A stretch of DNA of 64,000 nt from an uncultured Candidatus Saccharibacteria bacterium (GCA_964404925.1 CAYOLW010000001.1:2106-66105); one strand, 5' to 3'. Counted from the stretch's first letter, positions 3,006 to 63,989 are shown. The notes: a model not told the origin generated them from the letters alone. Numbers and translations: made by a program.

Positions 3006-3326
3006 ATGAACACACAAAACGCACAAAGTGCAATAAGGAACAACATAATAAGTTTATTTGGTATCGACACACTACCAGAAGAAAAACAAGAAGAGGTTAT
3101 AAGTAAAATCGGTAAAATGATTTTTCAAGCTGTTTTGATGAGGGTGCTACCAATGCTTGAAGAAGAAGACCTAAAATCCTATGATGAATTAGTGGCAACT
3201 AAACCAGGACCAGACGAATTAATGGGCTTCCTATTAGATAAAGTCCCTGAATTCCTAGACATAGTAGCAGAAGAATCAGAGAATTTTAGATCAGATGCTG
3301 AAGCAGTCATAAAACAAGTTAACTAA
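3006..3326 (+). CDS. Hypothetical small acidic protein (106 aa).
   Basis: The ORF is followed directly by a rho-independent terminator. Confidence 0.4.
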   Translation: MNTQNAQSAIRNNIISLFGIDTLPEEKQEEVISKIGKMIFQAVLMRVLPMLEEEDLKSYDELVATKPGPDELMGFLLDKVPEFLDIVAEESENFRSDAEAVIKQVN

Positions 3327-3330
3327 ACTA

Positions 3331-3358
3331 AAAACCCCGGGCAACCGGGGTTTTTAGT
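3331..3358 (+). terminator. Rho-independent terminator.
   Basis: The hairpin aaaaccccgg-gcaa-ccggggtttt is followed by a T-run. Confidence 0.7.
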
Positions 3359-3376
3359 TTGTGCTATATTTAGTGG

Positions 3377-5422
3377 ATGCAACACTTAGAAGGACTGAAC
3401 CCTAAACAAAAAGAAGCGGCATCTCATGTGTCTGGACCACTTCTTATCGTAGCTGGAGCTGGTGCAGGTAAAACCAAAACTATAGTACACAGAATTGTTA
3501 ATCTGGTTAAACAAGGCGTGAAACCCGAAGAAATACTGGCTGTGACTTTCACCAACAAGGCTGCTAAAGAAATGCGGGAAAGAGTGGAAAAAGAATTTCA
3601 CAAAAATGCCAGTGAACAGAGTGGTGTGCCGTTTGTTTCAACGTTTCATTCTCTCGGAGTGTTTATCATCAAAGAAAATGCCCCTATGCTGGGGCTTACG
3701 AAACATTTTTCTATATTAGATGAGGGTGATAGCGTTTCACTGGTGAAAGAAATAGTTAAAGAATTCGGTATTGATCCAAAACAGTATGACCCAAAAAAGA
3801 TTAAGGGAATTATTTCACGAGAAAAGGGTAAGTTTGTTAATCAAAGTGATTATGCTGAAAAAGCACTTAACCACGCCGGTGGGCGGGCAGGTTTCGGCAG
3901 CGGTATTGAAAATATTGTCGCCCGTGTTTGGGAAAAATATGAAAGCAAAAAGAAAGCAGAAAATTCATTGGATTTTGATGACCTATTAGTGAAGGCAACA
4001 GAACTACTGATTAATCATGAGGATATACGAGAACGCTACCAAAATAGATGGCAATATGTGCATATCGATGAGTATCAGGATACAAACGAAGTGCAGTACA
4101 GACTTTCAAAAATATTGGCTGAAAAAAATAAAAATATTTGTGTAGTAGGTGATGCTGATCAGAATATTTATTCTTGGCGTGGAGCAAACTTAAAAAATAT
4201 TTTGAGTTTTGAACGCGACTATAAAGATGCAAAAGTTGTACTGCTCGAAGAGAATTATCGTTCAACGCAAAACATATTAGCTGCCGCAAATGAAATAATT
4301 GAGAAGAATCAATTCCGTCCAGAAAAAAATCTTTTTACCAAAAATGAGGAAGGGGAGAAGATATCAATGTATGAAGCGCTAGATGAATCAGACGAGGCAG
4401 AATTTGTGGCAACAAAAATTTTGGAGTTATTAGACGAAGGAAAGCTTAGAGATTTTTCGAGTGGTCTGGTTGAGGGCGCACAGCACAAAGACACAAGCGC
4501 GCCCGACCCAAGGACCCGAGAAAAATCTGCTAAGCTTTCCGAAGTCGCTATCTTGTACAGAGCAAATTTTCAGTCACGAATTTTAGAAGAATCCATGCTA
4601 CGGTACAACATTCCATACCAAGTGCTGGGAGTAAAGTTCTTTGAACGTAAAGAAATAAAAGACACACTAGCCTACCTACGCGCAGCACTCAATCCTGAAA
4701 GTTTATCTGATATAAAAAGAATTATTAATTTCCCAGCTCGAGGAATTGGTAAAGCCAGTTTAGCAAAAATTTTTGCTGGACAGAAAAATGATTTGCCAAT
4801 TAAAATGCAAATTAAACTGCAGAACTTTTATGAACTTCTAGAAGACATCAAAAATGCAATTTTAGAAAACAAAGTTTCAGAGGTTATTAAATATGTAATT
4901 AAAAAGTCTGGGATAGAGGCAGAGTTGCTGGAAGGAGGAGATGAAGAAATGGAGAGACTTGAGAACATTAAAGAATTGGCAACACTTGCACTCAAGTACG
5001 ATAATCTGGAAAACGGATTAGGTGTTGAGAAATTACTTGAGGATGCAGCACTGGCAAGTGACCAAGATTCATTAATAATTAACCGGGAGCAAAAACAAGA
5101 AGTGAATGCGGTTAAACTAATGACTGTCCACGCAGCTAAAGGATTGGAGTTTGATTATGTTTTTATCGTAGGACTAGAGGATGGACTGTTCCCAAACCAA
5201 CGTGCTGGAGAAGTAAAAAACGGAGAGGATGCTGAAGAAGAACGTCGATTGTTTTATGTGGCACTTACTCGGGCTCGAAAAAAAGTATATTTATCTTTTG
5301 CAAACTACCGTACCATATTTGGCTCAAGACAGATCAATGCACCGTCCGAATTCCTCAGTGATATATCACAAGATTTAATCCAAAGAGAACGTGGTAATAT
5401 ATTAAAGACAATATATTTGTAA
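3377..5422 (+). CDS. uvrD: ATP-dependent DNA helicase of the UvrD/PcrA/Rep family.
   Basis: Walker A GAGAGKTKT is near the N-terminus. UvrD-family motifs include TFTNKAAKEM, the DEYQDTN Walker B/DExx motif, VGDADQNIYSWRGA, LEENYRST and the C-terminal VALTRARKKVYLS. Confidence 0.85.
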   Translation: MQHLEGLNPKQKEAASHVSGPLLIVAGAGAGKTKTIVHRIVNLVKQGVKPEEILAVTFTNKAAKEMRERVEKEFHKNASEQSGVPFVSTFHSLGVFIIKENAPMLGLTKHFSILDEGDSVSLVKEIVKEFGIDPKQYDPKKIKGIISREKGKFVNQSDYAEKALNHAGGRAGFGSGIENIVARVWEKYESKKKAENSLDFDDLLVKATELLINHEDIRERYQNRWQYVHIDEYQDTNEVQYRLSKILAEKNKNICVVGDADQNIYSWRGANLKNILSFERDYKDAKVVLLEENYRSTQNILAAANEIIEKNQFRPEKNLFTKNEEGEKISMYEALDESDEAEFVATKILELLDEGKLRDFSSGLVEGAQHKDTSAPDPRTREKSAKLSEVAILYRANFQSRILEESMLRYNIPYQVLGVKFFERKEIKDTLAYLRAALNPESLSDIKRIINFPARGIGKASLAKIFAGQKNDLPIKMQIKLQNFYELLEDIKNAILENKVSEVIKYVIKKSGIEAELLEGGDEEMERLENIKELATLALKYDNLENGLGVEKLLEDAALASDQDSLIINREQKQEVNAVKLMTVHAAKGLEFDYVFIVGLEDGLFPNQRAGEVKNGEDAEEERRLFYVALTRARKKVYLSFANYRTIFGSRQINAPSEFLSDISQDLIQRERGNILKTIYL

Positions 5423-5431
5423 TATTCACCG

Positions 5432-5536
5432 CACGAGATATAAATCTTTTCACGGTACGAAGTTTTTGAAGCTTAAAAACTTCTGCAACGCTCGGCCCGT
5501 CGGCCTCGCGACCCCTAAAAAAGATTATATCTCGTG
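5432..5536 (+). ncRNA. Structured intergenic element, copy A (~105 nt). It has a long outer stem with a single bulge and an inner hairpin, and it ends 11 nt before the rsmA start codon.
   Basis: The outer arms cacgagatataaatctttt and aaaagattatatctcgtg are complementary. The inner hairpin is gaagttttt-gaagctt-aaaaacttc. The second copy at 42573..42675 carries compensatory substitutions in both stems. Confidence 0.5.
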
Positions 5537-5547
5537 CAATAAACCAA

Positions 5548-6336
5548 ATGCATAAAGCAAAAAAATCACTTGGGCAAAATTTTCTTAAATCGGAAGCGGC
5601 CTTACGCGCAATAATTGAAGCTGGAGAAATAAAAAATACTGACACTATTCTCGAGATAGGACCTGGTAAGGGTGCCCTCACAGAGAGACTACTGGAAAAA
5701 GCAGGGAAGGTACTTGCTGTTGAGAAAGATCAAGATTTGATTTTATTCTTGCAAGAAAAATTTAGTGAGGAAATAAAAACCAAAAAACTAATTTTAATAG
5801 AAGGAGATATTTTAGATATAGAAATAAAAGAAAATAAATATAAAGTTATTGCCAATATCCCATACAACATCACCGGTGCAATTTTAAAAAAGTTTTTGTC
5901 TGGAGATAGTCAGCCAGAATTAATGGTTCTTTTAGTGCAGAAAGAAGTGGCAGAGAGAATTGTAACTAGAGATGGTAAAGAAAGCTTGCTTTCTATATCG
6001 GTCAAAGCGTACGGAGAACCCAAGTACATAACCAAGGTAGCCGCCAGGTATTTTAGCCCAGCACCAAAGGTAGACTCAGCTGTGATAAAAATAAGCAATA
6101 TTTCAAAAAATATTTTTACACAAGGAAAGGTTAGCGAACAAGTGTTCTGGGAATTAGTGCGAGCTGGTTTCGCACACAAAAGGAAAAAGTTAATTGGCAA
6201 CCTAAAAACCAATGACAAAAGTACTAACTGGGAAAGAATTTTTGAAAAAACTGGAATCAAAATAGACATTAGACCAGAAAAAGTATCTGTGGAAGAATGG
6301 GTGGCTATTTGCATCAACAAAAATATTGGTAATTAA
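5548..6336 (+). CDS. rsmA: 16S rRNA (adenine1518/1519-N6)-dimethyltransferase RsmA/KsgA.
   Basis: The N-terminal KSLGQNFL motif and SAM-binding LEIGPGKGALT are present, along with the NIPYNIT motif. Length is typical at 262 aa. Confidence 0.9.
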   Translation: MHKAKKSLGQNFLKSEAALRAIIEAGEIKNTDTILEIGPGKGALTERLLEKAGKVLAVEKDQDLILFLQEKFSEEIKTKKLILIEGDILDIEIKENKYKVIANIPYNITGAILKKFLSGDSQPELMVLLVQKEVAERIVTRDGKESLLSISVKAYGEPKYITKVAARYFSPAPKVDSAVIKISNISKNIFTQGKVSEQVFWELVRAGFAHKRKKLIGNLKTNDKSTNWERIFEKTGIKIDIRPEKVSVEEWVAICINKNIGN

Positions 6337-10696: not shown

Positions 10697-13600
10697 ATGT
10701 TTAAACTAAAAACAAAAATTTTATTATCTATCGCGCTATTGTTAACAACAATACCTATAACCACCTTAGCAGCTTTATATGTTGAGGTTATACCAGTAAC
10801 ACAAAAAAATTTAACGAGTGCAACATTGGTTGGGGTACTAATGGATGATGCTTTTCCAACAGGTGTAAGTACTGAGTATGTAAAATTTAGATATACCACA
10901 ACATCCAGTACTTCATGTGCAAACATGACAACCGAAACAGCAGTACAAACAATAAATTTAGATTTCCAATTACATGAATTTTATAATTTTCAACAACAAT
11001 TAAATTCACTTACTCCACACACTAAATATTACTTTTGTGCTGTAGCTTCTAGTGAAGCAGATTTTTCTGCAAACGTTCTTTATAGTGGAATAAGAGATTT
11101 CACAACAGAACTGCCTCCAGACTTGGCAGATAATGTTGTGACAGGTACCGCAAGTAATATAACACAAAACGGTGCAACAATATATGGAGAAATTTACAAT
11201 GATCACAGCACTCCTATATTTGGAAAATTTAAATATTCAGAAAATTATTCTGTTAGTTGCGCATCATTACCTAATGCTATAAACACACCAGTTCAACCTC
11301 CTGGTGGTGTTGGTGCATCATTGTCTCTTAATTTTTCACACACGTTAACTAACCTAAAAAGCAGCACCACATACTCTTATTGTGCTGTCGGTGATACTAA
11401 CTCTGATTTTCCAAATGCAATTTATGGAGAGGTTAAAGTATTTACTACGCCACCTTCTGCTTCTGGTAATCCAGAAGATATTGGACCAGTTGATACGCAA
11501 GAATCTACGGAAATGGATGACAATGAAGTTACTTTGCAAGGTAATTATTCAGGGGGGGCACCTGGTTTTGCATATTTTAGATTAACAAGTGCTACTGTGC
11601 CTCCTCTTTTTTGTAATGATATTTATGGTTCAGATATGATTGGTATAACCTCTAATGAACCAGACCCTATTGGGTATACAACTGGCGGAGATTTTTCTGT
11701 ACATGTTAACGGACTTGAACCAGAAACAACATATTTTTATTGTGCTATTGTTTCTAACAATGCGCTAACAACAAAATTAAATAAATTAACCTATAGGCCT
11801 CAAATAAAATATGGATCAGTTAAATCATTTAGAACTTTACCTTGTTTAACTTGTAATATTACACAAGTAACAACACTTGGTTCAAATGTAATTGATTCAC
11901 AAAGCGTCAATTTAAAAGGTTCTTACAGAACAAGCAGGCCTGTAAAAATATATTTTGAGTATAGTAAAGATTTTGATGTAAGTACCCCGCCCACAAGTGG
12001 TAATGTTTGGATTCCAACAAACCCACCAAAACTTGGAGGTTTTAATTCTTATGGTAACTATAATTTTTTACTTACTGGACTTGATAGCAATACTAAATAC
12101 AGTTTCAGAATAGTTGGAGAATTAGCTATTGGTGGTGAAATAATCTACGGATCTACTCTAGACTTTACAACAGATGCTTATGATGGTGTTGACCCTATAA
12201 TAACAGAAGACCCTGTAGATGATGTTCCAGTTGAACCAGGTGGAGAAGGTGGAGGTGATGATAATTGTCCAGCTGGAACAATAGGTATATTTCCTGATTG
12301 TACTGTTGGTGAAATAGGCTGTCCAGCAGGATATGAAGGAGTGCCACCAGATTGTGTTAATCTGGGAGGAGGAAGCGGGGATGATGACGCACCGGTTGTA
12401 GAAGTAACAGCTGATCCAATATTTGTTGATCCCGGACAGTCTTCTACTATAACTTGGACTTCTACTAATGCGACGTCTTGTGTTTTAAACGGATACGACA
12501 TACCAACATCAGGATCTGCTGATACTGGTGCTCTCAATACGAGTAAATCGTATTCAGTAATTTGTACAGGACCGGGTGGAGTTGGTTCTGATAATGCTCA
12601 AGTCTACGTAAACATAACAGGCGGAGGTGGGGGTGGTGACATTATCTGGGTTAAAGCTTTGGCTGCACCAGTTTTTGTCACAACAAACAGTTCCTCTGTT
12701 GTATCATGGCAATCAAGCGGTGCAGAATTTTGTGAATCTGGTGGACATGGAAATGGTACTAGCGGTTCTTTTAACACTGGACCACTTACTAGTTCAATGT
12801 CCTACACAATTTCTTGTAGTGGACAATCTGGCAGTGCAGCAAGCACTGCATACATAGAAACACATGATCCTGTTACTCCACCATCTTGTTTCGCAGTACC
12901 ACAAACCCAGTCACTACAATGTCCTGCTGGACAGGTAGGTCTGATCTTACAATCTCGCAGTTCAACTTGTCCTGATCCAAACGGTTCTCCTGTTTGGTCA
13001 AATTGGGAGACAGTGACCAACTCTTGTCAGAGTTCAAGTGGTGGTCCAACTCCACCATCTTGTTTCGCAGTACCACAAACCCAGTCACTACAATGTCCTG
13101 CTGGACAGGTAGGTCTGATCTTACAATCTCGCAGTTCAACTTGTCCTGATCCAAACGGTTCTCCTGTTTGGTCAAATTGGGAGACAGTGACCAACTCTTG
13201 TCAGAGTTCAAGTGGTGGTCCAACTCCACCATCTTGTTTCGCAGTACCACAAACCCAGTCACTACAATGTCCTGCTGGACAGGTAGGTCTGATCTTACAA
13301 TCTCGCAGTTCAACTTGTCCTGATCCAAACGGTTCTCCTGTTTGGTCAAATTGGGAGACAGTGACCAACTCTTGTCAGAGTTCAAGTGGTGGTCCTGGAG
13401 GACCAGGTAGTGGAGTGTTTCCACCGGGACCAGGTAATCCATGGAGCCCTACTGGACCCGGAGGCCCTGGCGGCCCCAATGGTAATGGCGGTACAAACCC
13501 AACCCTACCACAAGGACCAGATAACGATGGTGATGGACTTGGTAATCCAAACGATGATGATACAGACGGGGACTGGGATCCAAATGGAACAGATACAGAC

Positions 13601-14239
13601 GATGATGGTGATGGGATTCCTGATTTAGTTGATGCGACTCCAAACGGACCTGGAAATTCTGATGATTTAGACGGTAATGGAGTAGGTAATGACAAAGACA
13701 ATGATATTGATGGTGATGGTGTACCCAACTATCTAGACAACGATACTGATGCAGATGGTATTCCAAATGCTACAGATTCAGACGATGATGGTGATGGGAT
13801 TCCTGATTGGCTTGACCCTTTACCAAAAGGTCCACACGGAGATAAGGTTGGAGTTATTTTGGGGGTAGGGGATGAGGCCATACCACCTTCGGACGCAATC
13901 GTTCATTATAACGAAGGTGTAGAGACTGTTTTTGCTAGACAAATCAGAAATCGCAACAAACTTTCAGAGAAGTTAGGATATTCAGGCAGAGGCAACCTAG
14001 AATCATTTGCTCAAAATATGGCTCATACACTCTCTCGATATTACTTTGGTTATGTTGACGAAAGCGGCAAAGAAGTGCGTGTGTCAGTACCTGATGTTTC
14101 AGCATATGAGTTGAGGATTGTTGGCAACAAATTAGCTGTTTATGAATATTATCGAAACAAAATAATAGATATACGAGTGCAAAGCATCCAATTCAAGAGT
14201 AAGAATCCGTACGAATATTATTTCCAGAAAAGGTTTTAG
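10697..14239 (+). CDS. Giant surface protein or adhesin (1180 aa). It has a signal peptide, repeated Ig/FN3-like modules, three identical 58-aa Cys-containing tandem repeats, thrombospondin-type-3-like Ca-binding Asp-rich repeats and a C-terminal globular domain.
   Basis: The signal peptide is LLSIALLLTTIPITTLAA. Recurrent module endings are YYFCAV, YSYCAVGD, YFYCAI and YSFRIV...FTT. The DxDxDGxxDxxD-type repeats are DNDGDGLGNPNDDDTDGDWDPNGTDTDDDGDGIPD and related copies. Confidence 0.6.
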   Translation: MFKLKTKILLSIALLLTTIPITTLAALYVEVIPVTQKNLTSATLVGVLMDDAFPTGVSTEYVKFRYTTTSSTSCANMTTETAVQTINLDFQLHEFYNFQQQLNSLTPHTKYYFCAVASSEADFSANVLYSGIRDFTTELPPDLADNVVTGTASNITQNGATIYGEIYNDHSTPIFGKFKYSENYSVSCASLPNAINTPVQPPGGVGASLSLNFSHTLTNLKSSTTYSYCAVGDTNSDFPNAIYGEVKVFTTPPSASGNPEDIGPVDTQESTEMDDNEVTLQGNYSGGAPGFAYFRLTSATVPPLFCNDIYGSDMIGITSNEPDPIGYTTGGDFSVHVNGLEPETTYFYCAIVSNNALTTKLNKLTYRPQIKYGSVKSFRTLPCLTCNITQVTTLGSNVIDSQSVNLKGSYRTSRPVKIYFEYSKDFDVSTPPTSGNVWIPTNPPKLGGFNSYGNYNFLLTGLDSNTKYSFRIVGELAIGGEIIYGSTLDFTTDAYDGVDPIITEDPVDDVPVEPGGEGGGDDNCPAGTIGIFPDCTVGEIGCPAGYEGVPPDCVNLGGGSGDDDAPVVEVTADPIFVDPGQSSTITWTSTNATSCVLNGYDIPTSGSADTGALNTSKSYSVICTGPGGVGSDNAQVYVNITGGGGGGDIIWVKALAAPVFVTTNSSSVVSWQSSGAEFCESGGHGNGTSGSFNTGPLTSSMSYTISCSGQSGSAASTAYIETHDPVTPPSCFAVPQTQSLQCPAGQVGLILQSRSSTCPDPNGSPVWSNWETVTNSCQSSSGGPTPPSCFAVPQTQSLQCPAGQVGLILQSRSSTCPDPNGSPVWSNWETVTNSCQSSSGGPTPPSCFAVPQTQSLQCPAGQVGLILQSRSSTCPDPNGSPVWSNWETVTNSCQSSSGGPGGPGSGVFPPGPGNPWSPTGPGGPGGPNGNGGTNPTLPQGPDNDGDGLGNPNDDDTDGDWDPNGTDTDDDGDGIPDLVDATPNGPGNSDDLDGNGVGNDKDNDIDGDGVPNYLDNDTDADGIPNATDSDDDGDGIPDWLDPLPKGPHGDKVGVILGVGDEAIPPSDAIVHYNEGVETVFARQIRNRNKLSEKLGYSGRGNLESFAQNMAHTLSRYYFGYVDESGKEVRVSVPDVSAYELRIVGNKLAVYEYYRNKIIDIRVQSIQFKSKNPYEYYFQKRF
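12875..13396 (+). repeat. Perfect 3 x 174-bp in-frame tandem repeat inside the adhesin gene. Each unit encodes ...PPSCFAVPQTQSLQCPAGQVGLILQSRSSTCPDPNGSPVWSNWETVTNSCQSSSGGPT.
   Basis: The unit boundary actccaccatcttg recurs at 12875, 13049 and 13223. The three units are identical at every base I compared. Confidence 0.9.
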
Positions 14240-31977: not shown

Positions 31978-32029
31978 GGCCTTATTTTAGCTTAAAAACT
32001 ATGTATAATCCATACTAGTAACACAATCA

Positions 32030-32057
32030 AAAAACCTGGGTTACTCCCAGGTTTTTT
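32030..32057 (-). terminator. Bidirectional rho-independent terminator with an A-run, the stem acctggg/cccaggt, and a T-run.
   Basis: The sequence is aaaaaacctgggttactcccaggtttttt. It lies downstream of the small acidic ORF on the minus strand. Confidence 0.65.
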
Positions 32058-32066
32058 GATTTTTAT

Positions 32067-34160: not shown

Positions 34161-34849
34161 TACTTTTCGTAGTTTAAACAAAAATCTTTACCACCTACTT
34201 TAAAACTTGAGTACGAATCATTAATTATGTTCATTGCTTCTTCTGGTGTTTTAACGTGAAAGATTAGATTATAGTCTTCTTTGTCTAAATATTTTTTTGC
34301 TAAAGGTTCTTCTTTTATCCAACGGAGTAATCCTTCCCATTCGTTGCCCATTAAAATAATTGGAATGTTACAAATATGATGCACTTGCACAAGTTGCCAT
34401 GTATAAAAAAGTTCTAGGATTGTACCTAACCCCCCAGGGCATACTACCACTGCATTTGTAAGGGTCATAAATTCGTCTAGTCTTCCTGAGAAACGATTAA
34501 ACTGTTCTTTGTATTCTACTGAATCATTAAACTTTTGTTCCCAAGGAAGCTTTATCCCTATTCCTATAGAGTGTGCACCTGTTTTACCTATTGCTTGTCC
34601 TTCTAAATGACCTTCGTTGCCTGCTTTCATTAAACCAGGACCACCACCAGTTATTACATCGATACCTGTTTCCCCGAGCATTTTAGCTAAGTGTTTAACT
34701 TGTTTGTAGATTTCATCATTGTTTTCTATTCTCGAACTACCAAAAATGGTCACTCGGAAATGTTGCTTGTCTTTTTTTAAAAAAAAGTTGAACACCTTGT
34801 TTTTCATATGTTCCACTATAAGATTATTCTTCGTATAGGTCAACAACAC
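34151..34849 (-). CDS. LOG-family protein (putative cytokinin riboside 5'-monophosphate phosphoribohydrolase/lysine decarboxylase-like, TIGR00730 type).
   Basis: The GGGPGLMKAGNEG and PGGLGTILELF motifs match the LOG-family GGGxGxM and PGGxGTxxE. Confidence 0.8.
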   Translation of the reverse strand: MLLTYTKNNLIVEHMKNKVFNFFLKKDKQHFRVTIFGSSRIENNDEIYKQVKHLAKMLGETGIDVITGGGPGLMKAGNEGHLEGQAIGKTGAHSIGIGIKLPWEQKFNDSVEYKEQFNRFSGRLDEFMTLTNAVVVCPGGLGTILELFYTWQLVQVHHICNIPIILMGNEWEGLLRWIKEEPLAKKYLDKEDYNLIFHVKTPEEAMNIINDSYSSFKVGGKDFCLNYEKYKI

Positions 34850-36521
34850 CAGATACTTCTTCGATAGAGGTTATGCCATTTAATATTTTTACCACCCCGT
34901 CTTGTCTCATGGACAAAATACCTTGGTGTTTAGCAATACTTTTTATTTCTCGTTCTGAAGGGTTTTCCGGCATTATTTTTTCAAGTGACTCATCTGTTTT
35001 GACTGCTTCAAAAATACCGATTCTACCTTTGTATCCTGTATTGTTACATTTTTCACAACCTGTTGGGTAAAAGAAGTGCAACTCTTGGTCTTTTTGAAGT
35101 CCATATTTTTTCAATTCTTTACCCTCTGTTTCCATGGTTGCTAATATGTTTTTCATTATTTCCAACTCTCTTTCTTTGGGTGCTTTTTCTATTTTGCAAA
35201 ATTGGCATAATTTTCTAACCAAACGTTGTGCTATTGAAAGAGAAAGTGCTGAAACAAGAATTTTTGGATTGACCTTAAGGTCAATCAAGCGGGGGATTGC
35301 ACCGGCTGCGTTGTTGGTGTGCAGCGTAGAGAAAACCATGTGACCAGTCAATGCAGCCTGGACAGCTGTTTCAGCCGTGTCTGGGTCACGTATTTCACCC
35401 ACCATGATTACATCAGGGTCTTGTCGTAATGCAGCTTTCATTCCTTCGGCGAACCCATACTTAGCATCGTCTTCTTTTTGAGTTTGGGTTATTCCACGTA
35501 GACGGTACTCCACCGGATCTTCAATAGTAATTATTTTTATTTCTGGAGAATAAATTCTGCGCAAGAATGCATACAGTGTGGTGGTTTTACCGCTACCAGT
35601 TGGACCTGTTACCAGAATCAATCCATTGGGCTTAGCTATTTCTTCTTTAATAATTCCAAACAAATACGGCTCAATACCCATATCTTCCAAATCAATCTGA
35701 ATTGATTTGGGATCCAAGATACGCATCACAATGGATTCTCCGTATGATCCAGGAATCATTGAAGTACGAATAGATAACTCTTCTTCACCTTCGGTTATAG
35801 AGAATCTACCGTCCTGGGAATTTTTAGAAGTAAGCTTCATTCCAGAAAGAAGTTTAATTCTAGAGTTTATTAGGTGGTAGGTGTCGAGTCCAAAAAAATC
35901 AATGTCTTGCAAAACACCATCGAGTCTAAAACGCAGTCGTCCACGATCGTTTTCTGGCTCGATGTGTATATCAGATGCCTTAATAGCAATAGCTCCAGCT
36001 AGAATTATTTCCAAGATTCTTGATATTCGGTGGACTTTGTTCGTCTCCATTTCTTTTTTGACCATGCTTGAAATATCTTGGATATGATTTATGTTTTCAG
36101 CTGTTTTGCGTAAAATCTCAGATGAAATATCAAGGCCACCAATTCTGGAGTTTTCGGCTAATGAAAGTTCTGTATACCTTTCCCAGACTTTTTCAATACT
36201 ACCTAAAGATGCCATATAAAAAACTGGAACCAGCCCATGACGTAGTACATCTTCACGGATTCGTTCCTTTAATTCGTCAGTTGGTGTTCTAAGTGCAACA
36301 TAAATATTTTTACCGACAAGTTTAAATGGACCAATTTTTAACTCTCGGGCATCAGCTTCTGAAATAGCACGCAATGATTCATTGTCTATACCGAGTCTGT
36401 ATAGGTCTACGTAAGGCAGATTGTATTTTGTTTCAGCCAGCATGGAGACCAACTGTTCTTCTTCTTTCCTGCGCAATTCATCAATCTGTTTATTTTGTTT
36501 ATCTTCATCAAAGGATGACAT
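34824..36521 (-). CDS. pilB: Type II secretion/type IV pilus assembly ATPase (GspE/PilB family).
   Basis: An N-terminal GSPII_E_N-like domain is present, with Walker A GPTGSGKTTTL, Asp/His boxes, and a tetracysteine motif CEKCNNTGYKGRIG. The gene overlaps the LOG gene by 26 nt. No other pilus genes are adjacent. Confidence 0.85.
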   Translation of the reverse strand: MSSFDEDKQNKQIDELRRKEEEQLVSMLAETKYNLPYVDLYRLGIDNESLRAISEADARELKIGPFKLVGKNIYVALRTPTDELKERIREDVLRHGLVPVFYMASLGSIEKVWERYTELSLAENSRIGGLDISSEILRKTAENINHIQDISSMVKKEMETNKVHRISRILEIILAGAIAIKASDIHIEPENDRGRLRFRLDGVLQDIDFFGLDTYHLINSRIKLLSGMKLTSKNSQDGRFSITEGEEELSIRTSMIPGSYGESIVMRILDPKSIQIDLEDMGIEPYLFGIIKEEIAKPNGLILVTGPTGSGKTTTLYAFLRRIYSPEIKIITIEDPVEYRLRGITQTQKEDDAKYGFAEGMKAALRQDPDVIMVGEIRDPDTAETAVQAALTGHMVFSTLHTNNAAGAIPRLIDLKVNPKILVSALSLSIAQRLVRKLCQFCKIEKAPKERELEIMKNILATMETEGKELKKYGLQKDQELHFFYPTGCEKCNNTGYKGRIGIFEAVKTDESLEKIMPENPSEREIKSIAKHQGILSMRQDGVVKILNGITSIEEVSGVVDLYEE

Positions 36522-41937: not shown

Positions 41938-41992
41938 TTAAACCCAATACCCCCTAGGGTTTACCTATATGGATTATCAGGGGGAAATTACC

Positions 41993-42025
41993 AAACGGTA
42001 CTCGAACGAGTACCGTTTTTTTATT
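41993..42025 (+). terminator. Rho-independent terminator.
   Basis: The hairpin aaacggtactcg-aa-cgagtaccgttt is followed by a 7-T run. Confidence 0.7.
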
Positions 42026-42055
42026 GCCAAAATATTTGTGTTAATGTGGTAGAAT

Positions 42056-42568
42056 ATGGTTATGGAACCTGAGAATGTACAAGAATCAAAAGACGAGAAA
42101 TTAGAGAGGGAAGCCAAGCATTTGGTTCACCACGTGTTGGCTCACTCATACACTGTTTATTTCTTTGTGCTTTTGGTGGGGGTGGCGCTGGATATGCTTT
42201 TCCCAATTCGTGTTTTTCCTCAGTATTTAAATACTGTTGGCATAGTCATGCTTCTTTTGTCTTCGGCTCTTATAGTCTGGGCTCAGACAAGCTCCATCGG
42301 CAGTCAGCACCACAGAAACAACAAAGAAGACTTAACCCACGATCATTTCAGATGTGGGCCGTACCGCTATAGCCGCACACCGACACATTGGGGACTCTTT
42401 CTTTTGGTATTAGGTTTCGGACTTATAATAAATGCATTCTTTATTACGATTCTAACTATTGTTTCATTTTTTATTACTAAGGTCACATTGATAGCTAAAG
42501 AGGAGAAAATCCTAGAAAGCCGCTACGGTGAGCCGTACAAAGAGTATAAAAAATCAGTCAAACTGTAA
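42056..42568 (+). CDS. Polytopic membrane protein with a possible ICMT/phospholipid methyltransferase-like fold.
   Basis: Four to five transmembrane helices are present. The C-terminal-half motif GPYRYSRTPTHWG resembles the ICMT-family G-x-Y-x-x-x-R-H-P-x-Y motif. This identification is weak. Confidence 0.35.
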   Translation: MVMEPENVQESKDEKLEREAKHLVHHVLAHSYTVYFFVLLVGVALDMLFPIRVFPQYLNTVGIVMLLLSSALIVWAQTSSIGSQHHRNNKEDLTHDHFRCGPYRYSRTPTHWGLFLLVLGFGLIINAFFITILTIVSFFITKVTLIAKEEKILESRYGEPYKEYKKSVKL

Positions 42569-42572
42569 TCAA

Positions 42573-42675
42573 GCAGTATATAAACTTTTTTCCGGTACGA
42601 AATTTTTGAAGCTTAAAAATTTCTGAAGTTGGCTCGCCGTCGCTCGCCAAACCCCTTCAAAAAGTTATATACTGC
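42573..42675 (+). ncRNA. Structured intergenic element, copy B (~103 nt). It ends 7 nt before the likely holA start.
   Basis: The outer arms gcagtatataaactttttt and aaaaagttatatactgc have the same 1-nt bulge as copy A. The inner hairpin gaaattttt-gaagctt-aaaaatttc carries a compensatory g/c-to-a/t change relative to copy A. Confidence 0.5.
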
Positions 42676-42682
42676 TTTCATC

Positions 42683-43330
42683 ATGATTTACCTTTTCGCT
42701 GGCGATGATGCTGACAAGAAAATAGCCAACTATCAAAAGTTTATAACTTTACTGCCCAAGGAAACAGAAGTTTTTAAAATTGCCCGCAATAACTTCGATA
42801 AAGTAGAAATAGAAAGCTTTTTCTCTGGGTCTGGTCTTTTCTTTAAAACATGTGCGGTTGTATTTTCTAATATTTTAGAAAGGGAAGACGAAAGGGGTTT
42901 TGTTTTTTCTAAACTAAATGAATTAGCAGATTCACTGAACACTTTTGTTTTTATTGAAAGTAAATTATTAAAATCTGAACTTGATGAATTCAAAGAGGTT
43001 AAAGCTCAAATAAATTATTTTGAATTACCAAAAGAAAAACACGAAAAATATAATAATTTTATATTAGCCAATGACTTGGGTGCCAGGGATAAGAAAAGTC
43101 TCTGGTTGCATTATCGTGAGGCGGTTGATTTGGGTGTGGGGCTTGAAGAATTGGTTGGGGTAATGTTCTGGAAGGTTAAAGATATGCTCGTAAAGGGTTT
43201 GTACGGCAAGTGGCAAAAGGAGGAATTGCAAAAAGTGGGTGCCAGGTTATCCTACCTGTTGCCTGAGGCCCGTCGTGAAGGTCGCGACGCCGAAATAGCC
43301 TTCGAGCAGTTTATACTAGAAATTTTTTAA
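42683..43330 (+). CDS. holA: Short DNA polymerase III delta subunit (HolA)-like protein.
   Basis: I prefer the start MIYLFAGDD at 42683, because the listed 42629 start lies inside the structured element. The N-terminal YLF-G-D-D and the SGSGLFFKTCAVVF pattern resemble holA N-domains. The protein is about 216 aa, shorter than canonical. Confidence 0.5.
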   Translation: MIYLFAGDDADKKIANYQKFITLLPKETEVFKIARNNFDKVEIESFFSGSGLFFKTCAVVFSNILEREDERGFVFSKLNELADSLNTFVFIESKLLKSELDEFKEVKAQINYFELPKEKHEKYNNFILANDLGARDKKSLWLHYREAVDLGVGLEELVGVMFWKVKDMLVKGLYGKWQKEELQKVGARLSYLLPEARREGRDAEIAFEQFILEIF

Positions 43331-53501: not shown

Positions 53502-54185
53502 TTAGAGTTGTAAAAGAGACAAGAATTTTTCTAACTCTGTTCCAGTAATTTCTCGTGTTTGATTTTGTTTTAAATCTCCAAGTTTGATGTTCATCACTCG
53601 AATACGTTTTAATTCTGCTACTTCTTGAAATAGCGCTACACACATTCGGCGAATTTGGTGTTTCTTTCCTTCGGTTAAGGTAACTCTGAATTTATCTACA
53701 TCTAGTATTTCTACTTTACATGGTTTGGTTTGATAACCTTCTATATTTACACCCTTCTCCATTTTGTCTTTGAAGCTAGATCGTAAGTGGCCTTTAACTC
53801 GCACATCATATCCTTTCTCGTGTTCAAATTTTGGATTCAAAAGCCTGTCAGTTATTCTTCCGTCATTCGTAAGCAGCATGAGTCCGTGTGAGGCTTTGTC
53901 GATGCGGCCAACAGGGAATACTCCAGCCGTTTTTAATTTGGGCATTCTTTCGATTATGTCTTCTGTTTGTACGCCAATTGGTTTATTGTAAGCAAAGTAA
54001 ACATACTTTTGCTTTTCTAAGCCTTTGACATCTACCTTGTCTGATTCACCTACCTTGTCTCCGAGCTTGGCTTTTTTACCATTTATAAAAACTTTGCCCG
54101 ACTCAATAAGTACATCAGCGCCTCGGCGAGTCGAAATACCCTTCAAAGCTAAATATTTATTAATACGCATGGGATAATTTTCCAT
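53502..54185 (-). CDS. rRNA pseudouridine synthase (RsuA/RluB family) with an N-terminal S4 domain.
   Basis: The S4 region is MRINKYLALKGISTRRGADVLIESGKVFINGK. The catalytic motif is GRIDKASHGLMLLTNDG. Confidence 0.8.
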   Translation of the reverse strand: MENYPMRINKYLALKGISTRRGADVLIESGKVFINGKKAKLGDKVGESDKVDVKGLEKQKYVYFAYNKPIGVQTEDIIERMPKLKTAGVFPVGRIDKASHGLMLLTNDGRITDRLLNPKFEHEKGYDVRVKGHLRSSFKDKMEKGVNIEGYQTKPCKVEILDVDKFRVTLTEGKKHQIRRMCVALFQEVAELKRIRVMNIKLGDLKQNQTREITGTELEKFLSLLQL

Positions 54186-54339: not shown

Positions 54340-54395
54340 AAACAAAACTTAAAAACACTTACATAAGAGTAAGTGTTTTTAAGTTTTGTTTCCAC
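54340..54395 (+). terminator. Long perfect palindrome (arms of about 24 bp) after the tRNA-Arg gene, a likely terminator.
   Basis: The arms aaaacaaaacttaaaaacacttac and taagtgtttttaagttttgtttcc are separated by ataagag. Confidence 0.55.
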
Positions 54396-63427: not shown

Positions 63428-63434
63428 AGTGTTA

Positions 63435-63480
63435 AGCCATAAATAAAAAACCACTTTAAAAGTGGTTTTTTATTTATGGC
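63435..63480. terminator. 46-bp perfect palindrome between convergent genes, acting as a bidirectional terminator.
   Basis: The arms gccataaataaaaaaccactttt and aaaagtggttttttatttatggc are exact reverse complements of each other. Confidence 0.7.
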
Positions 63481-63989
63481 TTATAAAGCAACTTTAGCTT
63501 TTCGAGCCCACGATGTAATTGTACTGCTAAATAGTTTTTTGAGTGGCCAGTAATAAGTGACATTTCTTCAAGAGATAAATCTTGTACATGCCGCATTCGC
63601 ATAATCTTGCGGTACGCTATTGGTAATTTACTGATTAATAAAACAGCAGCTTTGCCATCTAAAATATGTAACATTCTATTAGAAGTGTTTTCGCTCGGCT
63701 CAAACCCTTTTTCTAGCAAAGAGTCCAAAGATACTGCCTTATGTTTTCTATACTGATCAATTATCAGAGCATTTAATACGTGAAATAGAAATGATTTCAT
63801 CGTTTCTATTTTTCCAACTTTTACCAAGTATTTCCATGTTTTAAGGAAGGTATCTTGAACTAAATCATCACTTACTGCATGATCGCCAGTTTTAAAAAAT
63901 GCTCGGGCATTCAGGCCTCTCCCATAGTCCTTGTGTGCTAGAGATATTATGGCTTGCCGCAAGATTCTTTGTTTTGGAGTCATGGTCAT
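63474..63989 (-). CDS. ECF-type RNA polymerase sigma-70 family factor.
   Basis: Region 2 is DLVQDTFLKTWKYL...IIDQYRK. Region 4 is YRKIMRMRHVQDLSLEEMSLITGHSKNYLAVQLHRGLEKLK. Confidence 0.75.
   Translation of the reverse strand: MTMTPKQRILRQAIISLAHKDYGRGLNARAFFKTGDHAVSDDLVQDTFLKTWKYLVKVGKIETMKSFLFHVLNALIIDQYRKHKAVSLDSLLEKGFEPSENTSNRMLHILDGKAAVLLISKLPIAYRKIMRMRHVQDLSLEEMSLITGHSKNYLAVQLHRGLEKLKLLYKP

Follow-up and report, generated by a model that had tools for sequence, protein, structure and literature searches.

The window, that is, the whole 64,000-nucleotide stretch of DNA analysed here from an uncultured Candidatus Saccharibacteria bacterium, contains two look-alike elements of 107 nt each, both on the + strand (the strand as given, 5' to 3'). 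Copy A (5431-5537) starts 8 nt past the uvrD stop codon (5420-5422) and ends 10 nt ahead of the rsmA ATG (5548), and copy B (42571-42677) starts 2 nt past another stop codon (42566-42568) and ends 5 nt ahead of an ATG at 42683. A preliminary description of this DNA had reported two such elements, and both were found where it placed them, with refined ends; its distance of 7-11 nt to the next start codon is only approximate, the real gaps being 10 nt for copy A and 5 nt for copy B. Pfam confirms uvrD and rsmA around copy A and shows the membrane-protein gene before copy B to be a PEMT-family membrane methyltransferase. The gene after copy B, which had been called holA-like, has no Pfam match, and the name is not upheld. 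A 32-nt core, GGTACGAARTTTTTGAAGCTTAAAAAYTTCTG, had been described as identical in the two copies, and it does occur exactly twice in the 64-kb window, both times on the + strand, where chance expectation is none (100 shuffles of the window). When the whole 64 kb was searched with the covariance model and the filters switched off, copies A and B alone were recovered, and the next best match reached 18.5 bits.

In both copies, folding gives one three-way junction formed by a long closing stem of variable sequence (P1: 13 bp and 5-6 bp separated by a single bulged base), an AU-rich hairpin (P2), and a GC-rich hairpin with a CGUC loop (P3), together with a short helix, GGU/ACC (P1b). The folding z-scores are -7.7 (A) and -6.4 (B) with RNA parameters and -6.6 (A) and -6.3 (B) with DNA parameters, with no shuffled sequence folding equally well. 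The features of the two copies, both assigned to family 1 as defined below, are as follows.

5431-5537, + strand (the reverse complement folds better): copy A, whole element, family 1; 106.7 bits, E 1e-26
5431-5450, + strand: copy A, 5' arm of P1; 13 bp, bulged A5444, 6 bp; partner 5519-5537; in MFE and centroid structures and with DNA parameters
5454-5458, + strand: copy A, junction GGTAC; GGT pairs with ACC at 5511-5513 (P1b), AC unpaired
5459-5483, + strand: copy A, P2 (GAAGTTTTT GAAGCTT AAAAACTTC); AU-rich, AAGCTT palindrome, one extra G at the tip
5489-5510, + strand: copy A, P3 (CGC TC GGCC CGTC GGCC TC GCG); GC-rich, CGTC loop
5519-5537, + strand: copy A, 3' arm of P1; from folding
42571-42677, + strand: copy B, whole element, family 1; 115.2 bits, E 5e-29
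42571-42590, + strand: copy B, 5' arm of P1; bulged A42584; partner 42659-42677
42594-42598, + strand: copy B, junction GGTAC
42599-42623, + strand: copy B, P2; from folding
42629-42650, + strand: copy B, P3 (TTGGC TC GC CGTC GC TC GCCAA); from folding and covariation
42659-42677, + strand: copy B, 3' arm of P1; from folding

The outer arms differ between the copies (A, GCACGAG.../...CTCGTGC; B, AAGCAGT.../...ACTGCTT) yet are complementary within each, the same single base is bulged in both (A5444 and A42584), and the R and Y positions of the core represent a G-C to A-U swap in the inner hairpin; on all three points the preliminary description was correct. P3 contains a conserved tandem U.C/C.U mismatch, which on the other strand is a tandem G.A.

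With Rfam 15 at the gathering threshold, the window yielded two tRNAs only, and in a permissive search of the element the best hit, a plant miRNA hairpin, reached 24.7 bits where its threshold is 100; no Rfam family matches the element. A pattern scan of one genome per species, with the middle of P2 left free, found 44 exact-pattern loci in 28 species genomes, several of which have more than one locus. The host labels are nearly all from Patescibacteria (Nomurabacteria, Paceibacterota, Vogelbacteria, Patescibacteria), and all but a few of these copies share the fold of the window copies. The covariance model R1 identified 50 strong copies in the loci, six of which the pattern had missed; in these six, the base of P2 reads GGA/UCC or AGA/UCU, and these are further compensatory changes. 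The preliminary description had allowed for a chance duplication, with only the two window copies in existence, and these 50 further copies show otherwise. Across family 1 the element is about 105-165 nt long, with two copies in the window and up to five within the examined parts of one genome. A scan of viral contigs gave two matches, both attributed to chance; they lie inside ORFs, and neither is recognised by the covariance model. One locus (L031; JAMPXW010000001.1, a 277-kb contig labelled as a Burkholderiales MAG) has two family-1 copies and about 37% G+C locally; a Patescibacteria contig has probably been mis-binned here. About 100 nt downstream of one full copy there is a truncated extra one with P2 and linker only (L034, 3659-3711, 22 bits).

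Covariation was evaluated in an alignment of 45 copies (A2) with the structure imposed. Standard pairs occupy 87% of the paired cells against 73.5% after shuffling, double-sided (compensatory) changes number 242 against 82, and the covariation score is 0.36 compared with at most 0.12 when the partners are slid. The earlier proposal of a selected structure rather than a decaying repeat is supported. Covariation is strong in all three stems, and variation is concentrated in P1 and P3: compensatory changes occur at 3 of 11 pairs in P2 and at 8 of 9 in P3, and the three pairs of P1b are invariant in 45 of 45 sequences, GGTAC being fixed by the search pattern. Since the pattern also fixed the P2 base and the loop, the invariance of these parts is in part a product of the search, and conservation of the core is inflated. 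The core of family 1 consists of the GGUAC junction, the AU-rich hairpin, a UGAAGU linker, the GC-rich hairpin with CGUC loop and tandem mismatch, and an AAACCCC junction, while the closing stem drifts in sequence with its complementarity kept. The two window spacers are copies of a previously undescribed family of hairpin-forming repeats in Paceibacteria (CPR). In the searchable literature, no report of MITE, REP, RPE, or structured RNAs was found for CPR/Patescibacteria, and we know of no description of small repeat families in this group.

If pairing were maintained in the sense mRNA, G.U pairs would be expected to be tolerated on the + strand; the opposite is observed. On the + strand, mismatches in P1 are A.C or C.A in 37 cases and G.U in 9, and A.C/C.A is G.U on the minus strand. 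The same holds for P1 in sense copies between tandem genes (12 A.C/C.A, 1 G.U) and for P3 (13 and 3). In extended arms, a pyrimidine internal loop on the + strand corresponds to a purine loop on the minus strand; of the alternatives, tandem G.A and the purine loop give the greater stabilisation. Of 52 copies, 48 fold more stably as the minus strand (mean -40.6 vs -34.9 kcal/mol), a count to be read with the proviso that conserved features are not independent between copies, so that the P1 counts are the cleaner evidence for the asymmetry. Copies inside genes, described below, show the same asymmetry whichever strand is transcribed. Since it is independent of the direction of transcription, the asymmetry is a property of the element and not of the transcript, which suggests that selection acts on a folded single strand, whether ssDNA or an RNA specific to the element. 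With respect to GC skew, orientation has a weak bias only (33:19). Therefore, a dependence on the replication fork is not supported, as a strong bias would be expected for ssDNA transposition of the IS200/IS605 kind.

Orientation was also counted relative to flanking ORFs of at least 100 aa. Between tandem genes there are 21 sense and 7 antisense copies, and a further 8 lie between convergent and 3 between divergent genes. The 3:1 sense bias in tandem contexts hints that orientation matters at the RNA level. When all ORFs of the 44 loci (8 kb each) were clustered, no neighbour family recurred in more than three loci, and the few that recurred at all were ordinary syntenic genes. On one flank or both, nearly every copy adjoins a stop codon and often runs a few bases into it; the arms begin 0-10 nt past stop codons. 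Across 46 copies, the next start codon may overlap the element or lie as far as several hundred nt away. As read from the sequence, each of the three frames of the core's + strand contains a stop codon, so that a gene overrun by the element terminates inside it; family 1 was seen only outside genes or overlapping gene ends.

Ahead of the window genes, Shine-Dalgarno motifs are essentially absent, which leaves little for an 'RBS-occluding' structure to occlude. In many window genes, a TATAAT-like box, frequently TGnTATAAT, ends 6-12 nt ahead of the start codon (e.g. 3377, 21024, 23126, 26484, 34824-36521 on the minus strand, 43428, 46280, and 53502-54185 on the minus strand), and this suggests widespread leaderless mRNAs. 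No promoter consensus was found in the element. A scan of 5300-5700 for intrinsic terminators, defined as a GC-rich stem-loop with an immediate T run, was negative; an intrinsic terminator was rejected for the element, which looks different from the genome's own terminator-like hairpins (A-tract, GC stem, T-tract). Such hairpins are present elsewhere in the window (3325-3360, 32025-32061, 41983-42028, 54340-54391, and 63433-63483), one of them directly after tRNA-Arg. Each stands at a gene end, is perfect or near-perfect over 16-25 bp, and is flanked by an A-tract and, on the opposite side, a T-tract. They probably act as intrinsic terminators in both directions, and they are unrelated to the element.

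The element behaves as an insertion, as can be seen from empty and filled orthologous sites. In L028 a convergent TrmH-like/fpg pair has 6 nt between the stop codons, whereas the orthologous pair in L011 (80% and 36% identity) is 199 nt apart, the gap being occupied by two elements back to back in opposite orientations. In genome MFTH01, three copies (L010, L023, L028) are near-identical over about 130 nt, arms included, within unrelated flanks, which indicates that the arms travel with the core. The spacer upstream of a conserved 349-aa gene contains family 1 in sense (L013), family 1 in antisense (L027), or the second family described below (L017). Further orthologous spacers (L001/L007, L009/L026, L024/L034) contain an element in each of the two species, with arms that differ. 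The arms are always complementary and differ between copies, with one subfamily having the common ends AATTACAAAACTC...GAGTTTTGTAATT. No direct repeat that would mark a target-site duplication was evident at the ends of the three near-identical copies or of the rsmA insertions, where the filled/empty pairs compared are too distant to give exact boundaries. A search of the loci for a longer autonomous element with the same arm ends returned only noise, and no transposase, RAYT, or other mobilising enzyme is linked to the element among the clustered ORFs of the 44 loci (8 kb each). The nearest RsmA to the window protein is 68% identical; the window genome thus has no close relative, and gain or loss of copies A and B themselves is not seen.

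An alternative origin, in which the core was inserted into the loop of a pre-existing terminator hairpin and the arms are host-derived, was rejected since the empty orthologous site has just 6 nt, near-identical copies bring their arms along, and the order of A- and T-tracts is opposite to that in the genome's terminators.

Two further arrangements were observed among the copies. A family-1 and a second-family copy back to back in opposite orientations jointly fill one gap at L044 825-1047 and at L011 4583-4809, which recalls BIME-style REP pairs. Also, elements with different cores have in common an outer-arm module whose asymmetric internal loop is conserved (AAACUC UUUCU CGG ... CC UUCAAC GAGUUU): it is present in family 1 (L007, L013, L015-L018, L022, L027, L037, L038) and with other cores (L111, L039, L119, L031 6285-6414, L020 6772-6864). 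The elements therefore look modular.

The second family surfaced through weak R1 matches. Its members run from the arms through (C)AC to an AU-rich hairpin, whose loop is CUGCUG, and then, past a short linker, to a CUCGGNNCGUCNNCCUCCG-type hairpin. A model built from seven of its copies (R2) recovers family 1 at E 1e-9 to 1e-2, and the two families are therefore related. They have in common the P3 hairpin with its tandem U.C/C.U mismatch, and one subfamily of each also has the outer-arm module AAACUCUUUCUCGG...CCUUCAACGAGUUU. In 80 metagenomic loci chosen only for encoding an RsmA relative (337 kb), R2 found 25 copies. Several of the sister-family elements lie in frame inside rsmA (L075, L068, L055, L054, L063) and uvrD (L068, L051), and the ORFs remain intact. 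The in-gene elements are as follows.

L075, 2794-2885: in-gene sister element
L068, 2789-2880: in-gene sister element
L068, 1436-1527: in-gene sister element
L055, 2794-2886: in-gene sister element
L054, 1112-1204: in-gene sister element
L063, 395-488: in-gene sister element
L051, 1443-1536: in-gene sister element

Relative to the window protein, the RsmA of L075 is longer by about 30 residues, inserted between 94 and 95, and the UvrD proteins of L068 and L051 have similar inserts; one peptide encoded by an inserted element is ..SIAQADELSIANFQQKIMCGFQNN.... Since P2 is palindromic, KFSAENF is encoded in both orientations (L068, L063). In an alignment of RsmA proteins, this loop is an insertion hot spot with elements in either orientation; the RsmA proteins of L068 and L063, for instance, are 80% identical and have their elements in opposite orientations. 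The hot spot also houses unrelated palindromes, and the close relatives L050 and L060 have nothing there. In-frame palindromic insertion is a behaviour described for Rickettsia palindromic elements (RPEs).

Other RsmA proteins have inserts of 20-49 aa, after about residue 95 in window numbering (L047, L057, L082, L098, L085), after about 190 (L065, L066, L070, L074), or after 28 (L051). These look unrelated to the superfamily; those of L047 and L082 are strong DNA hairpins, and one is a recurring Pro/Gly-rich peptide, PPLLVEGGVGGGD...PPRPxGTPP. The surface loops of RsmA look like dumping grounds for several repeat families.

Among known systems, REP sequences and REPINs (RAYT-associated; Pseudomonas, E. 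coli) resemble the element in being extragenic hairpins of about 100 nt with many copies per genome, which lie after genes and between convergent genes in either orientation and in which correlated changes keep the arms complementary. The folded single strand of REPINs is thought to be the substrate of a trans-acting enzyme, as is proposed here for the element. However, the taxon differs (Patescibacteria), alignments show no conserved GT(A/G)G (GTAG-type) 5' tetranucleotide at the arm ends, and no RAYT gene lies beside any copy in the 44 loci of 8 kb. Moreover, REPINs have a short spacer between two REPs, whereas the element has a conserved three-way-junction core at the hairpin tip. RPEs are likewise palindromic repeats of 100-150 bp found in the intergenic DNA of a reduced genome. 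Their in-frame insertion with preservation of the ORF has its counterpart only in the sister family (rsmA, uvrD); the window family, unlike RPEs, has stops in all three + frames and was not seen inside genes. The host phylum also differs, and a relationship in sequence is not expected.

Bacterial MITEs, among them Correia/NEMIS elements of Neisseria, RUP and BOX of Streptococcus, and ERIC of enterobacteria, are also short and non-coding, with inverted ends and without a transposase of their own, and are co-transcribed with their neighbours, so that long mRNA hairpins are possible. The element is short, non-coding, and present in several copies per genome, as MITEs are; however, classical MITEs have conserved terminal inverted repeats and a visible target duplication, whereas the element has variable arms and a conserved centre, and no duplication was found. 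Integron attC sites similarly retain the structure of a folded strand with free stem sequence, and extrahelical or mismatched bases mark one strand. An attC identity was nevertheless rejected, since the arms (...ATATAAAC / GTTATAT...) have neither R''/R' boxes (RYYYAAC/GTTRRRY) nor a conserved GTTRRRY, and the context is one of housekeeping neighbours (uvrD, rsmA) without a cassette array or integrase. Overall, small palindromic repeats, including in-frame ones, are known; the family, its three-way-junction core, and its occurrence across Paceibacteria appear in neither Rfam nor the searchable literature.

The elements occur in many copies at unrelated sites and in both orientations, with filled and empty orthologous sites, no linked gene, and covarying pairing. 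The reading we favour, to which we assign a probability of about 0.62, is that the window elements are a non-autonomous, non-coding, palindromic mobile repeat of the REPIN/RPE/MITE type, which belongs to a larger Paceibacteria/Patescibacteria superfamily. The preliminary description had offered a leader or RBS-occluding RNA, a REP/BIME-like element, and a processing or termination signal; the second comes closest, the first fares poorly as set out below, and for the third no terminator was found at 5300-5700. In a possible scheme, movement or copying of the element would pass through a single strand in folded form, most likely the complement of the strand given here, as ssDNA or possibly RNA. 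A trans-acting enzyme encoded elsewhere may recognise the fold by its shape together with the conserved junction and loop bases. Selection on the fold would then act through the element's own propagation, perhaps aided by hairpin-templated repair, and it is proposed that covariation could arise in this manner without any function for the host. Copies may survive only where they are harmless, which in genomes as compact as these would be directly after stop codons or in surface loops of proteins. The window copies would simply be co-transcribed in sense within the uvrD-rsmA spacer and the spacer between the PEMT-family gene and the next gene, and any influence of the hairpins on mRNA 3' ends or processing there would be a side effect.

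Several observations count against a mobile repeat. Even within a single genome, conservation of the core greatly exceeds that of the arms, which is unusual for a merely selfish repeat and could reflect a host function or gene conversion. Neither a mobilising enzyme nor a target duplication was found, and the 3:1 sense bias and the weakness of the GC-skew bias also fit poorly.

The sense bias and the high conservation of the core keep in play the main rival, a host-beneficial REP-type element, which is unlikely but deserves serious consideration: it might protect mRNA 3' ends against exonucleases, insulate adjacent transcription units, serve as an RNase III site between cistrons, or be a DNA site for nucleoid or topology proteins, and it may have a once-mobile origin with its copies now retained. 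Such a role would agree with the stop codons adjoining nearly all copies, with the sense bias between tandem genes, and with the occupation of the same spacers across species (L001/L007, L009/L026, L024/L034). It would also agree with a core that is near-identical across genomes whose flanking proteins are just 55-80% identical, and, as both strands fold, a hairpin role would be largely independent of orientation. However, orthologous sites with different subfamilies or orientations indicate turnover rather than conservation, relatives manage with a 6-nt spacer, and sister elements lie inside coding sequence. Sense copies gather A.C and not G.U, and pairing in the sense mRNA is therefore not what is preserved; a simple hairpin role also leaves the invariant junction and loop bases unexplained. 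In addition, the genome has ordinary intrinsic terminators elsewhere, and the element has no terminator signature.

It is improbable that the invariant core itself is an active module, either a new self-cleaving or self-ligating ribozyme or a folded ssDNA that takes over one of the host's universal enzymes of replication, repair, or recombination. If so, the elements would have spread through streamlined CPR genomes and into essential genes without a dedicated transposase. In a variant of this reading, the host would by now depend on the fold, which for that reason would be retained where it lies, coding sequence included.

It is very unlikely that the element is an active RNA in its own right, either a small RNA gene present in many copies or a new class of self-cleaving ribozyme, in which the three-way junction would serve as the core for catalysis or protein binding and the variable stem as a mere clamp. 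The three-way junction, the invariant unpaired bases, the covarying stems, and a core conserved far above the arms would suit such an RNA, and there is a superficial likeness to a type III hammerhead (CUGANGA ... GAAA, A9 and G12 being conserved, and an NUH triplet for cleavage) in the GUA before hairpin 1, the CUGAAGU between the hairpins, and, in some copies, GAAAC after hairpin 2. A hammerhead was nonetheless rejected, since the linker CUGAAGU has U and not A at position 9, G12 is missing in many copies (CAAAACC, CCAAACC), and GAAA follows hairpin 2 in only part of them; hammerhead and other ribozyme models of Rfam gave no match to the element even at E up to 10. Furthermore, with arms that begin 0-10 nt after stop codons the element has no space for its own promoter, its better-folding strand mostly runs antisense to the genes around it, and sister elements are translated as protein. 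A cis-regulatory leader on the + strand, acting on the gene downstream of it (rsmA, or that at 42683) by covering or uncovering its start or ribosome-binding site, in line with the leader idea of the preliminary description, is scarcely credible: its structure is strong and covarying and both window copies lie in sense 5-10 nt before a start codon, but orientations are mixed, with 7 copies antisense and 8 between convergent genes, the distance to the next start is too variable (overlap to several hundred nt), the downstream genes are unrelated and without a recurring family, the window genes lack Shine-Dalgarno sites and have boxes suggestive of leaderless mRNAs, the + strand is the worse-folding one even in sense copies, and the element behaves as an insertion, with near-identical copies at unrelated sites of one genome and an orthologous gene pair without it just 6 nt apart.

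The genomes of Patescibacteria are among the smallest and most streamlined of all bacteria. The findings suggest that a widespread repeat family with elaborate structure fills intergenic gaps there, provides stop codons and C-terminal residues to some genes, and, in the sister family, is translated within essential proteins (RsmA, UvrD). If the mobile-repeat reading is true, selfish DNA would be an active force even in minimal genomes. The elements will mislead screens for non-coding RNAs and riboswitches, as their covariation is genuine and yet probably not regulatory. They also add insertions to protein alignments and confuse gene callers: a mechanical ORF call in the window, 42629-43330, begins at a TTG within P3 of copy B, where the ATG at 42683 is the likelier start. 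The models R1 and R2 provide a means to annotate the elements and might also permit phylogenetic profiling for the enzyme that recognises the fold.

Apart from this superfamily, the window contains another kind of repeat. Three head-to-tail units of 174 nt, 99-100% identical, lie at 12875-13396 inside an ORF of 1180 aa (10697-14239), and degenerate Asp/Gly-rich repeats are found nearby at 13511-13833.
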